DNA of 35,555 nucleotides from positions 1 through 35,555 of the IMG/VR virus record IMGVR_UViG_3300048583_000185; one strand, 5' to 3'. Shown piece after piece: positions 3,543 to 35,555 of this stretch. The stretch is from a virus. The translations under genes were made by a program, and so were the position numbers. How positions within the stretch are numbered: the first letter of the stretch is position 1; every line of letters starts with the position of its first letter. Below the pieces are notes generated by a model. The model ran no database searches. It saw only the letters and a program-made list of their open reading frames with translations, and was not told the origin of the DNA.

Positions 3543-4120
3543 GCCACGCAACCGGCACTTACCTGGGCGGCATTCGAACGATCGACTGCCTGCAAAAGCG
3601 TAGCCACGTCTGCCCCGACACCGACTGCTGGCACTGGCGCATGGCCATCGTGCAGGGCACGCCCAAGGTCCATTTCACAACGCCGGACAGCGGCCGAAGC
3701 ATCAGCATGCGCGGCCGCCGCGCGGCGCTGTACCTGCTGCGAGGCATCGACGTGCCCGCCGGGCATGTGGCCTACCCGCGCATGACCTGCAAGAGCCGCG
3801 ACTGCGTCAACCCGGCGCACTCGACCAGCGGCGACCGAGACGCACACGGGCTGTGGCTGCGCAAGACCGGCGCCGTGGCCGGGCTGGCAAGCAAGTGCGC
3901 CGGCAGCCGCAAGGGATGGGAAGGCCGGCGCAAACTCACGCCCGAGGCCGTGGCCGACATCCGCTCGAGCGCCGAGAGCAACCTGGCATTGGCCGCCCGC
4001 TGGGGCGTCAGCCAGTTCGCCATCTGGTCGTGTAGGGTGGGCCAGACACACCGCAACGCGGTTGCCGGCAGCAGCGTTTTCAACTGGATACCAGCAGCAC
4101 AGATCGGGCGGCGGTCATGA
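3539..4120 (+). CDS. HNH-like (degenerate) DNA-binding protein with C-terminal HTH
   Basis: CWHWRMA...RRAALYLLRG...TCKSRDCVNPAHS resembles phage HNH_3-type proteins (CxNPxH). The tail KLTPEAVADIRSSAESNLALAARWGVSQFAIWS is the usual HTH appendix. Confidence 0.5.
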   Translation: MSHATGTYLGGIRTIDCLQKRSHVCPDTDCWHWRMAIVQGTPKVHFTTPDSGRSISMRGRRAALYLLRGIDVPAGHVAYPRMTCKSRDCVNPAHSTSGDRDAHGLWLRKTGAVAGLASKCAGSRKGWEGRRKLTPEAVADIRSSAESNLALAARWGVSQFAIWSCRVGQTHRNAVAGSSVFNWIPAAQIGRRS

Positions 4121-4521
4121 CGGATCAGTCAGACGCTGAGCACCCGCCTGCCACTGCCGGCGCCGACCCATTCGCCTGCATGGCCTCCGTCTTGGCCAAG
4201 GACAGGCCGCAGCAAAGCTGGATTACCGCCCCGCAGGTGACGCCGCTGCCAGAGGGAACCACCCGCGTCTCGGCGATGCTTTCGCTGCTGGCGACCGGCG
4301 GGCAATCTGCGGCCGAGCTGGCTGCGGCGGCTGGCGGCATTCCCACTGGGGCAGTGAGTGCGCTGCTGCACTCCCGCATGGAGCGCGGGCAGGTTCGGCG
4401 GGAGTGTGGAATCTATGAGTTGGTCCCTGAGTACGAAGACGAACTACACGCCAAGCTCAAGGCGGCCGCTTTGTGGCTGCGAGAGCACGGGTATGTGGTC
4501 AGCAGGGAGACGAAAGCATGA
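4117..4521 (+). CDS. Hypothetical protein with a probable winged-helix domain, 134 aa
   Basis: ATGA overlap. VSAMLSLLATGGQSAAELAAAAGGIPTGAVSALLHSRMERGQVRRE looks like a MarR-type wHTH. Confidence 0.55.
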   Translation: MTDQSDAEHPPATAGADPFACMASVLAKDRPQQSWITAPQVTPLPEGTTRVSAMLSLLATGGQSAAELAAAAGGIPTGAVSALLHSRMERGQVRRECGIYELVPEYEDELHAKLKAAALWLREHGYVVSRETKA

Positions 4522-4784
4522 GCAGCGTCAAGAAGCCCGTGCGGCTGGAGCTGAACAACAGCGGAAGCTGGAAGGTGATCGGCCGCTTCGAAGCGGCAGA
4601 CGACGAGCAGAGCAGTTTGGTGCTGGATGCGGCCGAGGAACTGATTAAGACGCTGCACAACAGCGAAGACCCGAAGCGCTGCCCGACGATGCGGGTGAGC
4701 ATGGACGGCGGTCTGGGGAGCGTGCTTTTGCGCTGGAGCTTGGTCGACGGATGGCGGGATGCGGAGACGGGCAGGGCGGCCTAA
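4518..4784 (+). CDS. Hypothetical protein, 88 aa. Its TAA stop lies inside the GCCTAAC box of the distal attC.
   Basis: ATGA overlap at 4518-4521. Protein-like composition (MSSVKKPVRLELNNSGSWKVIGRFEAADDEQ...). Confidence 0.6.
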   Translation: MSSVKKPVRLELNNSGSWKVIGRFEAADDEQSSLVLDAAEELIKTLHNSEDPKRCPTMRVSMDGGLGSVLLRWSLVDGWRDAETGRAA

Positions 4785-4832
4785 CGCCTAGCTCACCGGC
4801 CGCTTGCGGTCCGGTGCAGCGCGGTGTTATGC
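4779..4832 (-). other. attC site (distal, 54 bp)
   Basis: Minus strand: GCATAAC-ACCGC-GCT[G]CACCGG[A]CCGC-AA-GCGGCCGGTGAGC-TAGGC-GTTAGGC. It has a 13-bp stem, two extrahelical bases 7 nt apart on the R''/L'' arm, and unpaired 5-nt spacers. Confidence 0.7.
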
Positions 4833-4857
4833 GTGTGGTTCCGAAGCGTGGAGATGT

Positions 4858-5913
4858 ATGAATGAGTTGGCTCTTTTCGCAGGCGCTGGTGGCGGAATAC
4901 TCGCAGGCCACATGCTGGGCTGGCGCACCGTCTGCGCAGTTGAGCGTGATGCCTACGCCGCACAAGTTCTGGCGCAACGACAGAACGATGGAGCCCTCCG
5001 ACCATTCCCGATTTGGGCTGACGTGTGCGGCTTTGACGGAAGACCGTGGCGCGGACTTGTTGACGTGGTTTCGGGGGGCTTCCCTTGCCAAGACATCAGC
5101 GTTGCCGGCAAGGGCGCCGGCATTGACGGAGAGCGCAGCGGCATGTGGAGCCACATGGCGCGGATCATTGGCGAAGTTCGACCCCGCTTCTGCTTCGTGG
5201 AGAACAGCCCAGCCCTCGTTACTCGGGGACTCGGAAGAGTGCTCGGTGACCTGGCCGCGCTCGGGTATGACTGCCGGTGGACTGTGCTGGGAGCTGCCGA
5301 CGTTGGCGCCCCCCACCAGCGCGACAGGTTCTGGCTTGTGGGTGCCGACACCCTGCGCGACCGATGCGAAGCCGATCACGGGCGGGAACCTTTACGTGAC
5401 GGAAACGGGCACGGTGCGACACATGCGGCCGGATGGCAAGAGCAGCAACCGGGGCCTTGCAGCGAGTGCGGCCATGTGGCCGACACCCACCAGCAGCCTG
5501 GGCACGAACGGCGGCCGTGTGACGCCTGCCAAGGCTCTGGAAGGCGGGACGCTGATAGAGGCGCTGAGTGCGCGGACCACTTGGCCGACGCCGACCGTAT
5601 GCGACAACTACAACCGCAAGGGAGCCAGCGCGACCAGCGGGGACGGGCTTGCCACTGCGGTGCTGAAGTTTCCGACGCCTTCGACGCTTGGCATCAATGG
5701 CGGCAGTCATTCTCAAGCGGCGGCAGTGAAGCGCGGCCAGGCGGTGACGGAAGTCAATGGTGGCTCGCTGAACCCGACGTGGGTCGAGTGGCTAATGGGG
5801 TGGCCTATCGGGTGGACCGACTTAAGGCACTCGGAAACGGACAGGTGCCCCGATGCGCAGCCACAGCCTGGCGAATGCTCACTGGTGGCATGAGCGACAC
5901 GCATAACGGCTGA
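4858..5913 (+). CDS. dcm: DNA (cytosine-5) methyltransferase, 351 aa (frame A)
   Basis: Motif I LFAGAGGG, motif IV GGFPCQDIS, motif VI FVENSPAL, motif VIII APHQRDRFWLVG, C-terminal motif X RLKALGNGQVP. GGAG at 4850-4853. The middle third (Arg/Asp/Gly/His-rich) looks poor in this frame. Confidence 0.7.
   Translation: MNELALFAGAGGGILAGHMLGWRTVCAVERDAYAAQVLAQRQNDGALRPFPIWADVCGFDGRPWRGLVDVVSGGFPCQDISVAGKGAGIDGERSGMWSHMARIIGEVRPRFCFVENSPALVTRGLGRVLGDLAALGYDCRWTVLGAADVGAPHQRDRFWLVGADTLRDRCEADHGREPLRDGNGHGATHAAGWQEQQPGPCSECGHVADTHQQPGHERRPCDACQGSGRRDADRGAECADHLADADRMRQLQPQGSQRDQRGRACHCGAEVSDAFDAWHQWRQSFSSGGSEARPGGDGSQWWLAEPDVGRVANGVAYRVDRLKALGNGQVPRCAATAWRMLTGGMSDTHNG
4862..5893 (+). CDS. Overlapping same-strand ORF in the +1 frame of dcm, 343 aa, with WPTPT repeats and a C-terminal LNPTWVEWLMGWPIGWT motif
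   Basis: ATG lies 8 nt after the same GGAG. Balanced composition throughout. Repeated (W/F)PTP(T/S) units. I recognise the C-terminal motif from phage methylase-associated proteins. It is unclear whether it is translated. Confidence 0.4.
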   Translation: MSWLFSQALVAEYSQATCWAGAPSAQLSVMPTPHKFWRNDRTMEPSDHSRFGLTCAALTEDRGADLLTWFRGASLAKTSALPARAPALTESAAACGATWRGSLAKFDPASASWRTAQPSLLGDSEECSVTWPRSGMTAGGLCWELPTLAPPTSATGSGLWVPTPCATDAKPITGGNLYVTETGTVRHMRPDGKSSNRGLAASAAMWPTPTSSLGTNGGRVTPAKALEGGTLIEALSARTTWPTPTVCDNYNRKGASATSGDGLATAVLKFPTPSTLGINGGSHSQAAAVKRGQAVTEVNGGSLNPTWVEWLMGWPIGWTDLRHSETDRCPDAQPQPGECSLVA

Positions 5914-5985
5914 GTTCAGCGGGCCGCGTGATGCGGCCTGAAAGTGCGGAGTCCGTGACGGCTCCGCTGCAACGATTGGTTAGGC
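5901..5985 (-). other. attC site (proximal, 85 bp)
   Basis: Minus strand: GCCTAAC-CAATC-GTT[G]CAGCGG[A]GCCG-(32-nt variable loop)-CGGCCCGCTGAAC-TCAGCC-GTTATGC. This is the same 5-nt/6-nt spacer and bulge geometry as the aadA1 attC. Confidence 0.75.
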
Positions 5986-6006
5986 CCTGGTGGCCGAAGG
6001 GGAAGA

Positions 6007-6255
6007 ATGATGAACACCAAAGAGAAAGCCGCGATGGATGCGGGCGTGCAGTTCGGCATGAACATGCTCAAACTGGTGCCAAGCGACGACAAGCTGGCGC
6101 AGGAAGCCCACATCACCGGCGTGCTGGTGGCATTCATGGGCGCGCTGTGGGGCACGCTGGGCACCGAGTACGCACGGGGCTTCATTGAGGCCCAGCTTCG
6201 CGGCATGGAGCCCGACAAGCCGCATGAGCGATTCACGGCGCCGCCCGTGCAGTAA
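6007..6255 (+). CDS. Hypothetical protein, 82 aa (cassette 1 ORF)
   Basis: GGGGAAG SD precedes ATGATG. Flanked by GTTAGGC (5979-5985) and GCCTAAC (6258-6264). Central hydrophobic stretch ITGVLVAFMGALWGTLG. Confidence 0.6.
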   Translation: MMNTKEKAAMDAGVQFGMNMLKLVPSDDKLAQEAHITGVLVAFMGALWGTLGTEYARGFIEAQLRGMEPDKPHERFTAPPVQ

Positions 6256-6257
6256 GG

Positions 6258-6318
6258 GCCTAACTTCAATTCGCCAACACCCTGACCACCTCCCCGTCGC
6301 ATAACACCGAGCCGCCGC
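6258..6318 (-). other. attI-like site
   Basis: Minus strand from the intI ATG: GTTATGC (6305-6299), GTTGGCG (6278-6272), GTTAGGC (6264-6258). All are direct repeats with no attC-type palindrome, comparable to the DR/L/R box layout of attI1 ending in GTTAGGC. Confidence 0.55.
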
Positions 6319-7350
6319 ATGCAAGTCATTGATCTGCCATTACCCGCAGCGGTTACGCACGACGCCGCTCCCGCGTTATGCGACGCGCCACCGAAGCGGC
6401 TTAAGCAGCTCATGCGCGAAGCCTGCGCGGTGCGCCATTACAGCCGGCGCACGTTCCAGGCGTACTGGCACTGGTCGAAGCGCTTCATCCTCTGGTCAGG
6501 TAAGCGGCACCCGCGCGACATGGGCCAGCTCGAGGTGTCCGAGTTCCTGACCTGGCTGGCCATCGAAGGCAACGTCTCAGCCAGCACTCAGCGCCAAGCT
6601 CTGCACGGCATCCTGTTCTTGTACCAGGCGGCGCTCGGTATCCAGATCGGCTGGATCGAAAACATCGTGCGGGCCAAGCAAGCCCAGCGACTGCCCACAG
6701 TGATGTCTGTCGACGAGACTTCGGCAGTGCTGGCGGCCACCAGCGGCACGCCTGGGCTTTTCCTGCGGCTGCTGTACGGTACCGGCCTGCGGCTGATGGA
6801 AGGTCTGCGCCTGCGGGTCAAAGACCTGGACATCCCCCAGCGATTGGTGATCGTGCGCGGCGGCAAGGGCGACAAGGATCGCGTCACCGTGCTCCCAGAG
6901 CGCCTCGTCAAGCCCCTGACCGAGCTGCTCGATCAGCGCCGCCGCTGGCACCAGATCGACATGGCCACCGGGCACGCCAGCGTTGACCTGCCACACGCGC
7001 TGGCCAAGAAGTACCTGCGCGCTGGCTCCGAGTGGCCCTGGCAGTACGTCTTTGCCACGCCCGAGTACCACGTCAACCCAGACACCGGCGAAGAGCGCCG
7101 TCACCACCTTTTCGACTGGACCATCCAGCGCGCCATGAAGGACGCGGTACGCGCTGCCGGCGTCACGAAGCCAGCCACCCCGCACACGCTGCGGCACTGC
7201 TTTGCCACTCACCTGCTGCAGGCCGGCACCGACATCCGCCGCATCCAGGAGCTGCTGGGTCATGCAGACGTCAGCACGACCATGATCTACACCCACGTCG
7301 CCTCCATGGGACACACCGGCGTGCGCAGCCCGTTGGACGCGCTTGCATGA
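6319..7350 (+). CDS. intI: Integron integrase (IntI-type tyrosine recombinase), 343 aa
   Basis: Collinear by eye with IntI1: HYSRRTFQAYWHWSKRFI, STQRQAL, LLYGTGLRLMEGLRLRVKDLD, GKGDKDR, ATPHTLRHCFATHLL, LLGHADVSTTMIYTHV, GVRSPLDAL. It also has the IntI-specific insert DLPHALAKKYLRAGSEWPWQYVFA (nt 6979-7056). Confidence 0.85.
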   Translation: MQVIDLPLPAAVTHDAAPALCDAPPKRLKQLMREACAVRHYSRRTFQAYWHWSKRFILWSGKRHPRDMGQLEVSEFLTWLAIEGNVSASTQRQALHGILFLYQAALGIQIGWIENIVRAKQAQRLPTVMSVDETSAVLAATSGTPGLFLRLLYGTGLRLMEGLRLRVKDLDIPQRLVIVRGGKGDKDRVTVLPERLVKPLTELLDQRRRWHQIDMATGHASVDLPHALAKKYLRAGSEWPWQYVFATPEYHVNPDTGEERRHHLFDWTIQRAMKDAVRAAGVTKPATPHTLRHCFATHLLQAGTDIRRIQELLGHADVSTTMIYTHVASMGHTGVRSPLDALA

Positions 7351-7586
7351 CCACACTCGACATCCCCGCGATTGCTGAGCTGCTTGGCGTCAGCGCTAAG
7401 ACCGTGCGCGACCGCTTGGTGCATCGGCCCGACTTTCCGCCGCCACTGCTTGCAGCCGGCCCTCGATCTCGCCGCTGGTGCGCCGCCGAAGTCACCGCCT
7501 GGGCGACGCCAGCCGCGCGGCGATCTCCTGCGCCGTCTCGCGGAAATACACCCGCAGCAGAAGCGACAAGTCCCGATGCCCGCTGA
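7347..7586 (+). CDS. xis: Excisionase/AlpA-like MerR-type HTH protein
   Basis: LDIPAIAELLGVSAKTVRDRLVHRPDFPPPL...RRWCAAEVTAW is the HTH_17/Xis pattern. ATGA overlap with the intI stop. The 3' 95 nt overlap the convergent integrase gene, so the true stop is uncertain. Confidence 0.6.
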   Translation: MTTLDIPAIAELLGVSAKTVRDRLVHRPDFPPPLLAAGPRSRRWCAAEVTAWATPAARRSPAPSRGNTPAAEATSPDAR

Positions 7587-8517
7587 TCCGTGCGAGCGTC
7601 AGCACATCGACGCGGCGCGACAGCATTGTCAGCGCCGTGGCTCTGGCGTCATGGAAATGCACATCGCCCAGCATCACAGAATCCCGCACTCGCCGGAATA
7701 GCGTGTCCAGGGTGGCTGAAGACAGCGGAAGCAGCCGCCCGTCATCACCCGCCGCCGCCTCCGCCAGCCAGCCCAGCACGCGCGCGCCCTGCGGAGTCAG
7801 CGGCACCAGGCGCCGACCGACAGCGTGCGCTGTCTTGTGGTCGGCCAGCGTCACTACGCGGCGTTGCAGATCGACGGAGCCAACGGTTAGGCCCATGATC
7901 TCGCCGGCCCGCATCGCCGTGCGCAAGCTGACCAGCAGCGCCCAGGCAACGCACTGCAGACCGGTCACCGGCGGCACTGCTGTCCGGTAATCGCAGCGGC
8001 GCATGATGGTGCGGATTTCGCGCCATCCCATGCGCCGGTCGCGCGGGATGGCCTCGGCGGGCATCCTGACGGCTCGCCAGGGCGTCGGCGACGGACTCCA
8101 GGCCCACTCGGTGCTGGCCACCGTCCAGACGTGCCGCAGGATGTTGATGTCGCGCTGCACGCTGGCCGGCGTCACGCGCTGCAGCCGGGCGTCGCGCCAC
8201 TGGCCGAGGTCGTCGGCGGTGATGGTGTGCAGCACCTTGCCGCACAGCGCAGGAAAGTCGCGCTGGATGGCCGCCAGGCGCAGCCGCTCGGCCCTCGCGC
8301 CGCGCTTTTCCGCCGTGATCTCGCGCTCGTAGCGGTCAAGCGCATCGGCCAGCGTCTTGCGCGGCCAACGGCTGACGGTGCCGGCAAGGATCGCCGCTTC
8401 TTCCTGCGCGGCCCATGAGCTTGCCGCAGCTTTGGTGCCGAAGGTGCGCGACGTCCGCACACCCTGGCGCTCGATCTCAACGCGCCAGCCTTTCGCCGTC
8501 TTGCGGTAATACGCCAC
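7492..8517 (-). CDS. int: Phage tyrosine integrase, 341 aa
   Basis: N-terminal arm-binding-type MAYYRKTAKGWRVEIERQG. Catalytic LRTAMRAGEI (R), HFHDARATALT (HxxR), GHRDLSLLLRVYF (H...Y). Adjacent to attP. Confidence 0.85.
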   Translation of the reverse strand: MAYYRKTAKGWRVEIERQGVRTSRTFGTKAAASSWAAQEEAAILAGTVSRWPRKTLADALDRYEREITAEKRGARAERLRLAAIQRDFPALCGKVLHTITADDLGQWRDARLQRVTPASVQRDINILRHVWTVASTEWAWSPSPTPWRAVRMPAEAIPRDRRMGWREIRTIMRRCDYRTAVPPVTGLQCVAWALLVSLRTAMRAGEIMGLTVGSVDLQRRVVTLADHKTAHAVGRRLVPLTPQGARVLGWLAEAAAGDDGRLLPLSSATLDTLFRRVRDSVMLGDVHFHDARATALTMLSRRVDVLTLARISGHRDLSLLLRVYFRETAQEIAARLASPRR

Positions 8518-9253: not shown

Positions 9254-9721
9254 TTACACCTCCTGCAAGTTCGCGGCGATACGCCGGGCCCAGCCGCGCC
9301 CAAAGCTCGGCCAGGTCGGCAGGTCGGCCATCAGCGCGAGCCTCTGCCCGTTGAATCGAGCCAGCAGGCGCGGCGCAGGCATGCTCTGCACGGCCTGCAG
9401 CGTCCGCGGCCCGAGGATGCCGTCGACCGTCTCGCCGACGCACCGCTGCAGCATCCGCACCGCGGTGCTGACACCACTGTTCACCGCGCAGTCAAAAAGG
9501 TGCAGCTTCAGAGAGTCGGGCACAGCGTCGCAGCCGGCAGGCCCCCAGTAGTCGCGCCGGTAGATGGAGCGCGCCTGGTCCACCGTAAGCGCTGCGATGT
9601 CAAGCTGCGGGTAGCTGCGCTTGCTGATCCCGTACTTGCTTTCGCCGCCCGGGTCCGCGCGGTGATTGATGTAGCCGCCCTCGTGCTTGACCAGGGCCGC
9701 GAAGGCTTCGTCGAATGTCAT
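9254..9721 (-). CDS. Endolysin, glycoside hydrolase family 108-like with a peptidoglycan-binding C-terminus
   Basis: TFDEAFAALVKHEGGYINHRADPGGESKYGI is the GH108 N-terminal signature (EGGY...DPGG.T.YGI). Confidence 0.8.
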   Translation of the reverse strand: MTFDEAFAALVKHEGGYINHRADPGGESKYGISKRSYPQLDIAALTVDQARSIYRRDYWGPAGCDAVPDSLKLHLFDCAVNSGVSTAVRMLQRCVGETVDGILGPRTLQAVQSMPAPRLLARFNGQRLALMADLPTWPSFGRGWARRIAANLQEV

Positions 9722-35353: not shown

Positions 35354-35555
35354 CGACGCCCCCCCCCTACATCATCGGCAATGCGTTCTGATGCACTGAA
35401 CTCGATGACATTGCCGTCGCCCTGCATGACACTGGCCGCATGCCCAAACGCATGCCGCTCCAACGTCAGCCGGATGTATTCGCTCAGCGACCGCTCGTCG
35501 CGGGCGGCCAGGCGCATGAGCGCGGTTTCCAGCGTGTCGCTGATGCGGATCGTCG
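35350..35555 (-). CDS. RHH protein gene, 3' part (same gene as feature 1-155; 35429-35555 duplicates 1-127)
   Basis: Hand-translated across the junction. Stop TGA at 35352-35350. Confidence 0.7.
   Translation of the reverse strand, partial: TIRISDTLETALMRLAARDERSLSEYIRLTLERHAFGHAASVMQGDGNVIEFSASERIADDVGGGRR
35429..35555. repeat. Terminal overlap identical to 1-127
   Basis: Verbatim identity read by eye. Confidence 0.95.

Follow-up and report, generated by a model that had tools for sequence, protein, structure and literature searches.

The stretch analysed here, referred to as the window, is a viral sequence of 35,555 nucleotides obtained by metagenomic assembly. In the interval 4779-6318, reading frames alternate with short inverted repeats bearing integron-type core sites. 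This raises the question of whether the segments are gene cassettes placed there by an integron integrase (IntI) and, if so, what kind of integron a viral genome might carry. The data presented below make it very probable that the interval comprises the attI site and the two-cassette array of a complete integron, resident in a temperate phage whose complete genome assembles as a circle of about 35.4 kb.

Core sites, integrase and recombination sites

Read on the minus strand, cassette 1 (357 bp, 5907-6263) starts at G6264↓TTAGGC (6263-6258; the arrow marks the crossover point), ends with G5907 of the first attC site (attC1) and has its own R'' box, GCCTAAC, at 5985-5979. Cassette 2 (1122 bp, 4785-5906) starts at G5907↓TTATGC (5906-5901), ends with G4785 of attC2 and has GCATAAC (4832-4826) as its own R''. 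A further minus-strand core site, G4785↓TTAGGC (4784-4779), lies at the outer end of the array. A sequence-only reading of this DNA had located all these motifs correctly and had claimed that each cassette begins with the complement of its own R'' rather than with that of its neighbour's. This is indeed the case: cassette start and own R'' are complementary at seven of seven positions in both cassettes (2/2 perfect), versus six of seven, with one mismatch, for the R''/R' pair inside each attC. The whole pattern amounts to a single G/T polymorphism at five sites. Because the arrangement a=b, b≠c, c=d, d≠e has a probability of 1/16 under an equal-probability two-state model, the pattern taken alone is only suggestive. 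It is also strand-symmetric, a matched pair flanking the ORF on either strand, and thus cannot by itself orient the array.

On the evidence of sequence comparison, it is the related loci that make the interpretation as G↓TT exchange decisive. We collected 58 distinct cassettes of the same lineage with an inter-attC gap of at most 700 bp, 44 of which are informative. The R'' box fits the cassette's own start better in 39, its hairpin partner in 4, and the two tie in one (sign test, p = 3e-8); the own match is perfect in 36 cassettes and the partner match in 3. Furthermore, the two ends of the cassettes related to cassette 2, which encodes a DNA methyltransferase (see below), co-vary: TTATGC/GCATAAC versus TTGGGC/GCCCAAC, with both ends changed in loci L186, L187 and L189. 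In an independent sample (L188), the homologous cassette again combines TTATGC with its own R'' GCATAAC, next to a different neighbour (R' GTTGGGC). The sequence-only reading thereby survives a refutation that it had itself proposed, non-recurrence of the single-base pattern in independent material.

The intI gene (6319-7350, plus strand) encodes a protein of 343 aa that matches the integron integrase profile TIGR02249 with 417.6 bits (cutoff 265). Its residues 32-341 align with VchIntIA (2A3V; E 5e-74) from end to end. The protein is full length, its catalytic R, K, HxxR, H and Y motifs are all conserved, and the alignment covers the IntI-specific insertion, ALAKKYLRAGSEWPWQYVF. These features place it among the IntI-family tyrosine recombinases with the IntI-specific additional domain. 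It does not qualify as the integrase of a class 1 mobile integron, scoring 355.4 bits against the class 1 equivalog model NF011946 (cutoff 435), and it is 53% identical to the IntI of a Citrobacter freundii locus (L079) that we take to be a class 1 integron. The best match in species-representative genomes is at most 59% identical, making these proteins unusable as close comparators; exact-sequence look-ups of IntI and of a 95% relative (P0002) returned no match. The intact intI gene, 55 bp from the first cassette, distinguishes the locus from a CALIN, an attC cluster without integrase.

The attI site (6264-6318, minus strand) occupies the 55 bp from the crossover G6264 to the intI ATG. It adjoins the 5′ end of intI, contains a GTTATGC motif at 6305-6299 (minus strand) and ...GGCGAATTGAAG↓TT, and has a cassette junction of the G↓TTRRRY form. 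The layout GTGTTATGC ... GCTGGCGAATTGA[A/T]G↓TTAKGC is shared by L084-L093, L094 and L270; L082 has a more diverged form of it, GTGTTATGC ... GTTGTCTAATTGGAG↓TTAGGC. Among relatives with identical or similar IntI, conservation ceases at the G↓TTAKGC core site and the sequences diverge beyond it.

Both attC sites lie on the minus strand. In attC1 (85 nt, 5901-5985) the R' box is GTTATGC (5907-5901), the TTATGC being that of cassette 2; attC2 (54 nt, 4779-4832), at the outer end of the array, has R' GTTAGGC (4785-4779). Published criteria for attC sites include extrahelical bases at positions 16 and 23/24, which face the AAC triplet and have a 6-bp stem between them (PMC5027507). An unconstrained DNA fold of the plus strand of attC2 gives exactly two bulges in the 3′ arm, C16 and T23, plus an unpaired central spacer. 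In the plus strand of attC1, folded with R and L boxes constrained, C16 and T23 are likewise unpaired on the arm opposite AAC; this structure (-15.1 kcal/mol) is 6.4 kcal/mol less stable than the free minimum (-21.5 kcal/mol), which consists of local hairpins. Since C16 and T23 are unpaired on this strand in both sites, matching the criteria above, the folds identify the window plus strand as the attC bottom strand. The predicted geometry is canonical, with RYYYAAC...GTTRRRY, L boxes, a central spacer left unpaired, and extrahelical bases facing AAC from the bottom-strand arm. It deviates in having C rather than the usual G at position 16, as do 21 of 135 distinct attC sites of the lineage. 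These sites were collected by a crude script that looks for motifs and stems, rather than by the covariance model of IntegronFinder, and the script misses sites such as CCCTAAC at position 1729 of L084. A C as first extrahelical base could lower activity. With IntI, attI and canonical attC sites all present, the proposal that the core sites carry the footprint of IntI-mediated exchange between G and TT is supported.

Cassette genes and their mobility

Cassette 1 contains an 82-aa ORF (6007-6255, plus strand, hence attC bottom strand) with a GC3 of 0.84. No match was found in Pfam, NCBIfam or PHROG; the sense frame is intact and conserved in 10 viral loci, at 62-91% amino acid identity. Five homologues (L174, L176, L178, L180 and L181) have the same boundary: a stop codon, a few bases, then RYYYAA↓C. 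Cassette 2 encodes a C5 cytosine DNA methyltransferase (MTase) of 352 aa (4855-5913, plus strand, also attC bottom strand), matching PF00145 (8.9e-31) and phrog_363 (1.5e-66). The last two codons and the stop codon of this gene extend 7 nt beyond the cassette boundary, into attC1. Homology to the cassettes of L186-L189 begins precisely at G↓TT and extends to the cassette's own R''.

The array is bordered by the last gene of the phage backbone (4518-4784, plus strand; 88 aa from its ATG), whose TAA stop codon (4782-4784) lies inside the core-site complement GCCTAA. Homologues of this gene (69-75% amino acid identity) in L266-L269 are followed by more backbone genes, with no attC, and the similarity of these loci to the window begins immediately after TTAGGC. 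Judged by this similarity, the TTAGGC at 4784 is the start of the phage backbone and not of a third cassette. A third cassette below 4785 was considered and rejected: no attC was found there, and the backbone gene to which this stretch is homologous lacks one in other phages.

Homologues of both window cassettes were found in other arrays, with other neighbours, where the sequence-only reading had suggested looking. Contigs with identical IntI and attI carry four different first cassettes and diverge right after G↓TTAKGC. One cassette of the P0006 lineage occupies the first, second or fourth position depending on the array. Thus, the cassettes behave as mobile units, found in different arrays and at different positions. 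Homologous genes keep the intI-distal attC and R'' yet switch the intI-proximal neighbour: L187 and L188 have an unrelated attC in that place, and L090 and L091 have attI itself. In L094, whose platform is 95% identical, the contig stops exactly at the crossover point, as expected if the first cassette varies in the population.

These observations bear on two other ways of looking at the array. One takes the repeats for simple hairpins acting as terminators or regulatory stems, with the own-versus-neighbour pattern a one-base coincidence. A single G/T difference at five sites would allow this in roughly one case in 16, but no T-run or terminator-like site is present, a genuine intI gene begins only 55 bp away, the attC geometry is exact down to the bulges at 16 and 23, and the pattern recurs with other core variants in 39 of the 44 informative cassettes and co-varies in homologues. 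The comparative data already refute such a coincidence, which we regard as vanishingly improbable. The other reads the array on the plus strand, as canonical ORF-then-attC cassettes of another attI, each gene being paired with its intI-proximal attC. The swap pattern fits this equally well, the matched core pair flanking ORFs on both strands, and each ORF does have a core site and a ribosome binding site (RBS) close upstream and a stop codon just before RYYYAAC. However, the extrahelical bases and the spacer asymmetry place the bottom strand on the window plus strand, homologues retain the intI-distal attC and R'' while changing the intI-proximal neighbour, and the first cassette adjoins a conserved attI at the 5′ end of intI. 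A plus-strand array is thus very improbable.

The arrangement we favour is that of cassettes read on the minus strand. By the established mechanism, circular cassettes would have entered attI through an IntI-mediated exchange between A and C of the folded attC bottom strand, a position that reads G↓TT in the top strand. Every integrated cassette therefore starts with a TTRRRY that pairs with its own R'', and each attC in the array is a hybrid whose last six bases come from the next cassette, which accounts for the swapped pattern. On this mechanism the MTase cassette was inserted before the 82-aa cassette, and the TTAGGC at 4784 is what was once the right half of attI, joined to the 3′ end of the phage backbone gene. 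The boundary rule is long-established textbook knowledge, a standard diagnostic rather than anything new. Here it just certifies the array as real; what matters is the array's location and build.

Coding polarity and the phage setting

Both window cassette genes are encoded by the attC bottom strand, the sense strand of intI. They run in the direction of intI and are inverted relative to a canonical cassette. The same polarity prevails in the lineage. Pfam matches were obtained for 0 of 54 top-strand ORFs versus about 10 of 53 bottom-strand ORFs, and PHROG families for 0 versus 36; the called array genes of L084-L093 are all on the intI strand. Canonical controls (L072 and L079), run through the same pipeline, were assigned to the top strand. 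Only about one quarter of the cassettes have a family match that fixes the coding strand, and all of those are inverted. Homology was used for this purpose since ORF length and GC3 could not decide, long ORFs occurring on both strands at 66% GC (29 versus 28), and frame-specific GC is misleading for the laterally acquired MTase. Genes on the bottom strand cannot be expressed from a Pc promoter at attI. The locus thus lacks the arrangement of promoterless top-strand genes served by Pc at the attI end, a departure that concerns expression logic and not membership by recombination.

The window carries phage genes for the terminase subunits (TerS, TerL), portal, protease, tail, endolysin and primase, and a 127-bp overlap between its ends allows the genome to be assembled as a circle of about 35.4 kb. 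A location in host flanking DNA was rejected on the basis of this terminal overlap and of the phage genes on both sides. Downstream from intI, a putative xis-like gene (7347-7586, plus strand) has its ATG overlapping the intI stop codon (ATGA). Its match to PF12728 (HTH_17; E 3.1e-5, 24.6 bits) is below the cutoff of 27, and the gene following intI in L270 and L271 is recorded as HTH_17. A phage tyrosine integrase gene (7492-8517, minus strand; PF00589, 2.1e-13; phrog_1 integrase, 1.5e-38) is convergent with intI and xis. The same intI-HTH_17-int module is found at a prophage end beside host lon-clpXP-tig. A tRNA scan found none. The IntI lineage occurs on many viral contigs (188 stretches in IMG/VR), with array cargo consisting mainly of DNA-modification enzymes.

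From gene order alone we infer read-through transcription of the cassette genes and their co-expression with Xis. Rather than being served by Pc, these genes would form the last part of a plus-strand phage operon of the early-left type, transcription entering the array at its far end and continuing into intI and the translationally coupled xis-like gene. Firing of the operon would then yield cassette products, IntI and Xis at the same time, and the DNA-modification cargo would protect phage DNA from host restriction.

Two qualifications of this scheme deserve consideration. The cassette genes might instead use promoters of their own, in or next to each attC; relatives have an RBS and start codon inside the attC loop, and reverse-oriented and distal cassettes of chromosomal integrons are known to have their own promoters (PMC8876359). 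We consider this rather unlikely: a simple scan of 4000-7600, insensitive and confined to σ70 consensus promoters, found neither a σ70-like promoter nor a terminator, intergenic distances are short, and in L270 and L272 every gene from the immunity switch through intI has the same orientation. It could also be that the footprint is historical, the integron of the present phage being inactive and its cassettes fixed phage genes. Pointing that way are the small number of cassettes (only two), the disfavoured recombinogenic fold of attC1, the non-canonical first extrahelical base, and differences beyond R'' between attC2 and the attC site of the homologous cassette in L188. Against these points stand a full-length IntI with all catalytic motifs, first cassettes that differ between samples in sister lineages with identical IntI, and the L094 contig ending exactly at the crossover. 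Present inactivity retains a small probability.

Relation to known integrons

The locus shares with class 1 and proteobacterial chromosomal integrons an IntI with the family-specific insertion and an attI at the 5′ end of intI. It has the attC R and L boxes, unpaired spacer, extrahelical bases 16 and 23 and G↓TT crossover of canonical integrons, and its cassettes are shuffled between positions as theirs are. Unlike in canonical integrons, the cassette genes run in the direction of intI along the attC bottom strand, beyond the reach of Pc, the first extrahelical base is C instead of G, the platform is a phage genome, and IntI scores below the class 1 equivalog cutoff. Reverse-oriented cassettes, such as those for toxin-antitoxin systems, exist in sedentary chromosomal integrons and likewise have genes antisense to the attC top strand that cannot use Pc. 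Such cassettes are a minority there and have their own promoters, whereas every strand-determinable cassette is inverted here. In the inverted integron-integrase group (Treponema type), as here, intI and cassette genes are on one strand; unlike in that group, intI (plus strand) lies opposite the attC top strand (window minus strand), attI is at the intI 5′ end, and the ORFs alone are flipped.

Integron parts in phage genomes, with DNA methyltransferases among the phage-borne cassettes, feature in the survey of Qi et al. 2023 (PMC9892861), the only phage survey found, which counts 3 complete integrons and one In0 among the 10,705 phage genomes that it covers. The Vibrio anguillarum phage and phage P1 cases are described there as captured pieces of host chromosomal or class 1 integrons; they differ from the present locus, with its IntI lineage recurrent on viral contigs, conserved intI-xis-int module, phage-type genes and inverted polarity. 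In the open-access literature, we found no account of an integron that belongs to a phage lineage and has inverted cassettes.

A broader reading is quite possible, though we stop short of calling it probable: the locus would belong to a widespread, previously undescribed lineage of phage-resident integrons, whose reverse-polarity cassettes would therefore be transcribed at the distal end of the early-left operon with intI and xis and would form an exchangeable library of DNA-modification and other counter-defence genes shuffled on induction. Integrons are commonly seen as bacterial systems in which Pc drives the expression of promoterless cassettes. If true, a phage-adapted integron would extend the concept to phage counter-defence, with flipped coding polarity, phage-family cargo (mostly DNA methyltransferases and other DNA-modification enzymes) and an intI wired into a xis/int module as distinguishing traits. 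It would also provide a natural test of how far attC strand choice and cassette expression can be uncoupled.

The MTase cassette presents a peculiarity of its own. A second complete ORF of 343 aa (frame B, 4862-5893, plus strand) lies entirely within the MTase gene, in the +1 frame relative to it, and matches phrog_1008 (2e-33). The possibility that the MTase is a frameshifted pseudogene was rejected because frame A aligns end to end with the intact annotated MTases of phages ABMM1 and S9-5. A megablast search against phages and plasmids matched the first 240 nt of the MTase gene only, and no description of a dual-frame phage MTase was found in the open-access literature. In the MTase genes of ABMM1 and S9-5, this +1 frame stays open over 298 and 243 codons, respectively, and the third frame contains 28 and 15 stop codons.

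Core sites and the crossover point

The window contains the anatomy of an integron. The product of the integrase gene, intI (6319-7350, + strand), scores 417.6 bits against TIGR02249 (cutoff 265). A full-length alignment with VchIntIA (2A3V, E 5e-74) shows that both the IntI-specific insertion and the catalytic motifs (R, K, HxxR, H and Y) are conserved. The attI site spans the 55 bp from the intI ATG to G6264; its architecture, GTGTTATGC ... GCTGGCGAATTGAAG/TTAGGC (slashes mark the crossover point), is found again in relatives. In IMG/VR, 188 stretches encode IntI relatives.

Re-reading the minus strand confirmed the coordinates and sequences of the sequence-only reading exactly and gave five core sites: G6264/TTAGGC at the start of cassette 1 (6263-5907), R'' GCCTAAC of attC1 (5985-5979), G5907/TTATGC, R'' GCATAAC of attC2 (4832-4826) and, at the outer array end, G4785/TTAGGC. 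It also bore out the claim that a cassette start complements its own R'' box and not that of its neighbour: in both cassettes R'' is a perfect complement of the preceding G plus the first six bases, and the R''/R' pair within each of the two attCs contains one mismatch. This boundary rule is already known. IntI cleaves the folded bottom strand between A and C, producing hybrid attCs, and Stokes et al. reportedly pointed out in 1997 that a cassette should in consequence begin with the complement of its own R''. According to PMC3053210, the position of the crossover was established by Hall, Brookes and Stokes in 1991. The entire pattern in the window amounts to one G/T polymorphism at five sites, with a probability of about 1/16 under a two-state model; the window alone is therefore suggestive, and the evidential weight comes from related sequences. 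The swapped pattern is also strand-symmetric, the ORF being flanked by a matched pair whichever strand is read, and therefore provides no orientation of the array.

The window and the compared arrays are metagenomic assemblies, and attCs were called with a crude ad hoc script. An IntI protein 81% identical to that of the window (P0006) is present on at least 24 contigs, where the left half of attI is identical and divergence begins directly past G/TTAKGC. These contigs carry four different first cassettes, one of them starting with TTATGC instead of TTAGGC, and along their arrays the rule also holds where the cores are more informative, pairing TTAGGG with CCCTAAC and TTGTGC with GCACAAC. One cassette (TTAGGCCCGTAG...) occupies position 1 in L090 and L091, position 2 in L086 and position 4 in L084. 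The search for the same cassettes in other integron arrays, proposed in the sequence-only reading, uncovered homologues of the methyltransferase (MTase) cassette whose similarity to the window starts exactly at G/TT, the upstream attCs being unrelated. Start and own R'' co-vary among these cassettes (TTATGC with GCATAAC in the window and L188, TTGGGC with GCCCAAC in L186, L187 and L189), so that the pattern recurs in independent samples either unchanged or with both ends altered, as the test named in the sequence-only reading demanded; the window and L188 cassettes share start and R'' but differ in their partners (GTTAGGC versus GTTGGGC). In the complete set of compared arrays, 44 distinct cassettes with an inter-attC gap no larger than 700 bp were informative: the own start was the better complement in 39 of them, against 4 for the hairpin partner (p = 3e-8). 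Exceptions at longer gaps largely reflect attCs overlooked by the finder, as demonstrated directly for L084. Together, the divergence past G/TTAKGC, the co-varying ends and the cassette count uphold the proposed IntI-mediated exchange between G and TT, and these comparisons demonstrate both the crossover position and cassette mobility in the lineage.

A contig with a 95%-identical IntI (L094, 1-60) stops exactly at ...GAATTGAAG/TTAGG, the attI crossover point, which is what an assembler does if the first cassette varies within the population.

A motif and attC scan of the window found no more attCs below 4779, and the sequence beyond the TTAGGC at 4784 shares homology with the 3' end of a backbone gene (88 aa) that directly precedes further backbone genes in other phages (L266-L269). 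The array thus consists of two cassettes, and its outermost TTAGGC is the right half of the original attI. By the established mechanism of insertion at attI, the MTase cassette would have been inserted first and the 82-aa cassette second.

Polarity of the attC sites and cassette genes

Nivina et al. 2016 (PMC5027507) place the extrahelical bases of a folded attC bottom strand on the arm facing the AAC triplet: the first, usually G, at position 16, and the last, a conserved T, at 23/24 past a 6-bp stem. The + strand of attC2 (4779-4832), folded freely, has bulges at exactly C16 and T23. The same bulges appear in the + strand of attC1 (5901-5985) once the R and L boxes are constrained, in a fold whose energy (-15.1 kcal/mol) is less favourable than that of an alternative containing two local hairpins (-21.5 kcal/mol). 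These bulges identify the + strand as the bottom strand, so that intI, attI and attC are arranged with canonical polarity. In both sites the first extrahelical base is C16 instead of the usual G16. Among distinct related attCs, the top-strand bulge is C in 99 (73%; canonical bottom G) and G in 21 (~16%), which makes C16 the less common variant.

Both window cassette genes are encoded by the bottom strand. Cassette 2 (5906-4785) carries a C5 methyltransferase (4855-5913; PF00145, 8.9e-31) that aligns end to end with annotated phage MTases, and the 82-aa ORF of cassette 1 (6007-6255) is intact and conserved in 10 loci. In the L084-L093 arrays every called gene lies on the intI strand. When the longest ORF on each strand of every distinct cassette was matched to Pfam and PHROG, none of the 54 top-strand ORFs had a match, whereas bottom-strand ORFs matched about 10 Pfam and 36 PHROG families, fixing the strand for a fraction of the cassettes. 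Canonical integrons (L072, L079) run through the same pipeline came out with genes on the top strand, so the assignment is not flipped. As judged from these matches, the comparison demonstrates bottom-strand coding. The cargo of the lineage is mostly DNA methyltransferases (C5, N6/N4, D12/Dam), Mom-like and PAPS-reductase-like proteins and a DHH phosphoesterase.

The 82-aa family occurs as an integron cassette in five loci (L174, L176, L178, L180, L181) and as an ordinary phage gene without core sites in five others (L175, L177, L179, L182, L183), a hint that phage genes have been recruited into cassettes or that transfer went the opposite way. In the relatives the RBS and start codon of a bottom-strand gene lie inside the variable loop of its own cassette's attC (...GGAGATGAAGCATGAGCACC, bottom strand, L084 9449-9568; also other long attCs of L084 and L086), and some called genes run past the cassette boundary into attI.

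Phage residence and expression

The integron resides in a phage. An exact 127-bp direct terminal overlap (1-127 = 35429-35555) shows assembly of the contig into a circle of ~35.4 kb, corresponding to a complete phage genome. The minus strand encodes primase/helicase, TerS, TerL, portal, protease, tail, endolysin and a phage tyrosine integrase (int, 7492-8517); a tRNA scan of the window found no tRNA genes. An excisionase-type HTH_17 ORF (7347-7586, + strand; E 3e-5, slightly below the Pfam cutoff) overlaps the intI stop with its ATG (ATGA) and the end of the convergent int with its 3' part. An HTH_17 gene also follows intI in L270 and L271; in L270, a 429-kb bacterial contig, one end of an integrated prophage carries the intI-HTH_17-int module, beside host lon-clpX-clpP-tig. 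In a Hydrogenophaga MAG (L272) intI is directly convergent with a phage integrase, no HTH_17 gene being recorded between them, and the + strand block begins at a Cro/cI-like switch.

The cassette genes point away from attI, and a simple scan found no σ70-like promoter or terminator within 4000-7600. Their transcription thus probably comes from read-through of the + strand phage operon, which extends into intI and xis. Such an operon would co-express cassette genes and recombinase upon induction, and the attC bottom strand, being the non-template strand, might, speculatively, be displaced by transcription.

By recombination criteria, and on its sequence, the element qualifies as an integron, with all structural features present; it departs from canonical integrons in expression logic and host replicon. 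It differs from class 1 integrons, its IntI scoring below the NF011946 cutoff, and from the Treponema-type inverted-integrase group, since intI is opposite to the attC top strand; having its own intI, it does not fit a CALIN. Qi et al. 2023 (PMC9892861), surveying 10,705 phage genomes, counted only three complete integrons and one In0, and describe those of Vibrio anguillarum phages and phage P1 as captured host or class 1 pieces. Searches of the open-access literature found no account of the present arrangement.

Just upstream of intI in L270 (7403-9418), a series of called genes (82, 88 and 91-92 aa) appears two times in unchanged order and could represent duplication of a multi-gene cassette; the finder detected only one attC there. 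In L272 a small + strand gene matching PF21825 'Sequestin' (9489-9695) lies ~300 bp upstream of intI, within the prophage attC array.

A second reading frame in the MTase gene

Within the MTase gene (frame A, 4855-5913), the +1 frame contains another complete ORF (frame B, 4862-5893; 343 aa, phrog_1008, 2e-33). Corresponding loci are L184 1059-1973, L081 2500-3234 and L185 1026-1877. The +1 frame of homologous MTase genes is open for 298 codons in Acinetobacter phage ABMM1 and 243 in Salmonella phage S9-5, with 28 and 15 stops, respectively, in the third frame; a +1 match is also found within a Lacticaseibacillus phage MTase gene (locus 45.5% GC). The +1 products share the start MSWLFSQALVAEYS, PTP repeats and the end NPxWVEWLMGWPIGWTDL, which resembles C5-MTase motif IX, motif X (GNGQVP) lying just downstream in frame A. 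From these alignments the arrangement resembles either frame-switching expression or a conserved pair of genes that overlap completely; no literature on it was found among open-access papers. Over its first 240 nt (4859-5099) the gene is 82-86% identical in DNA to its counterparts in Salmonella, Klebsiella and Acinetobacter phages, although the window phage has 66% GC. Such identity points to lateral spread in the recent past or to exceptionally strong constraint, perhaps caused by dual coding.
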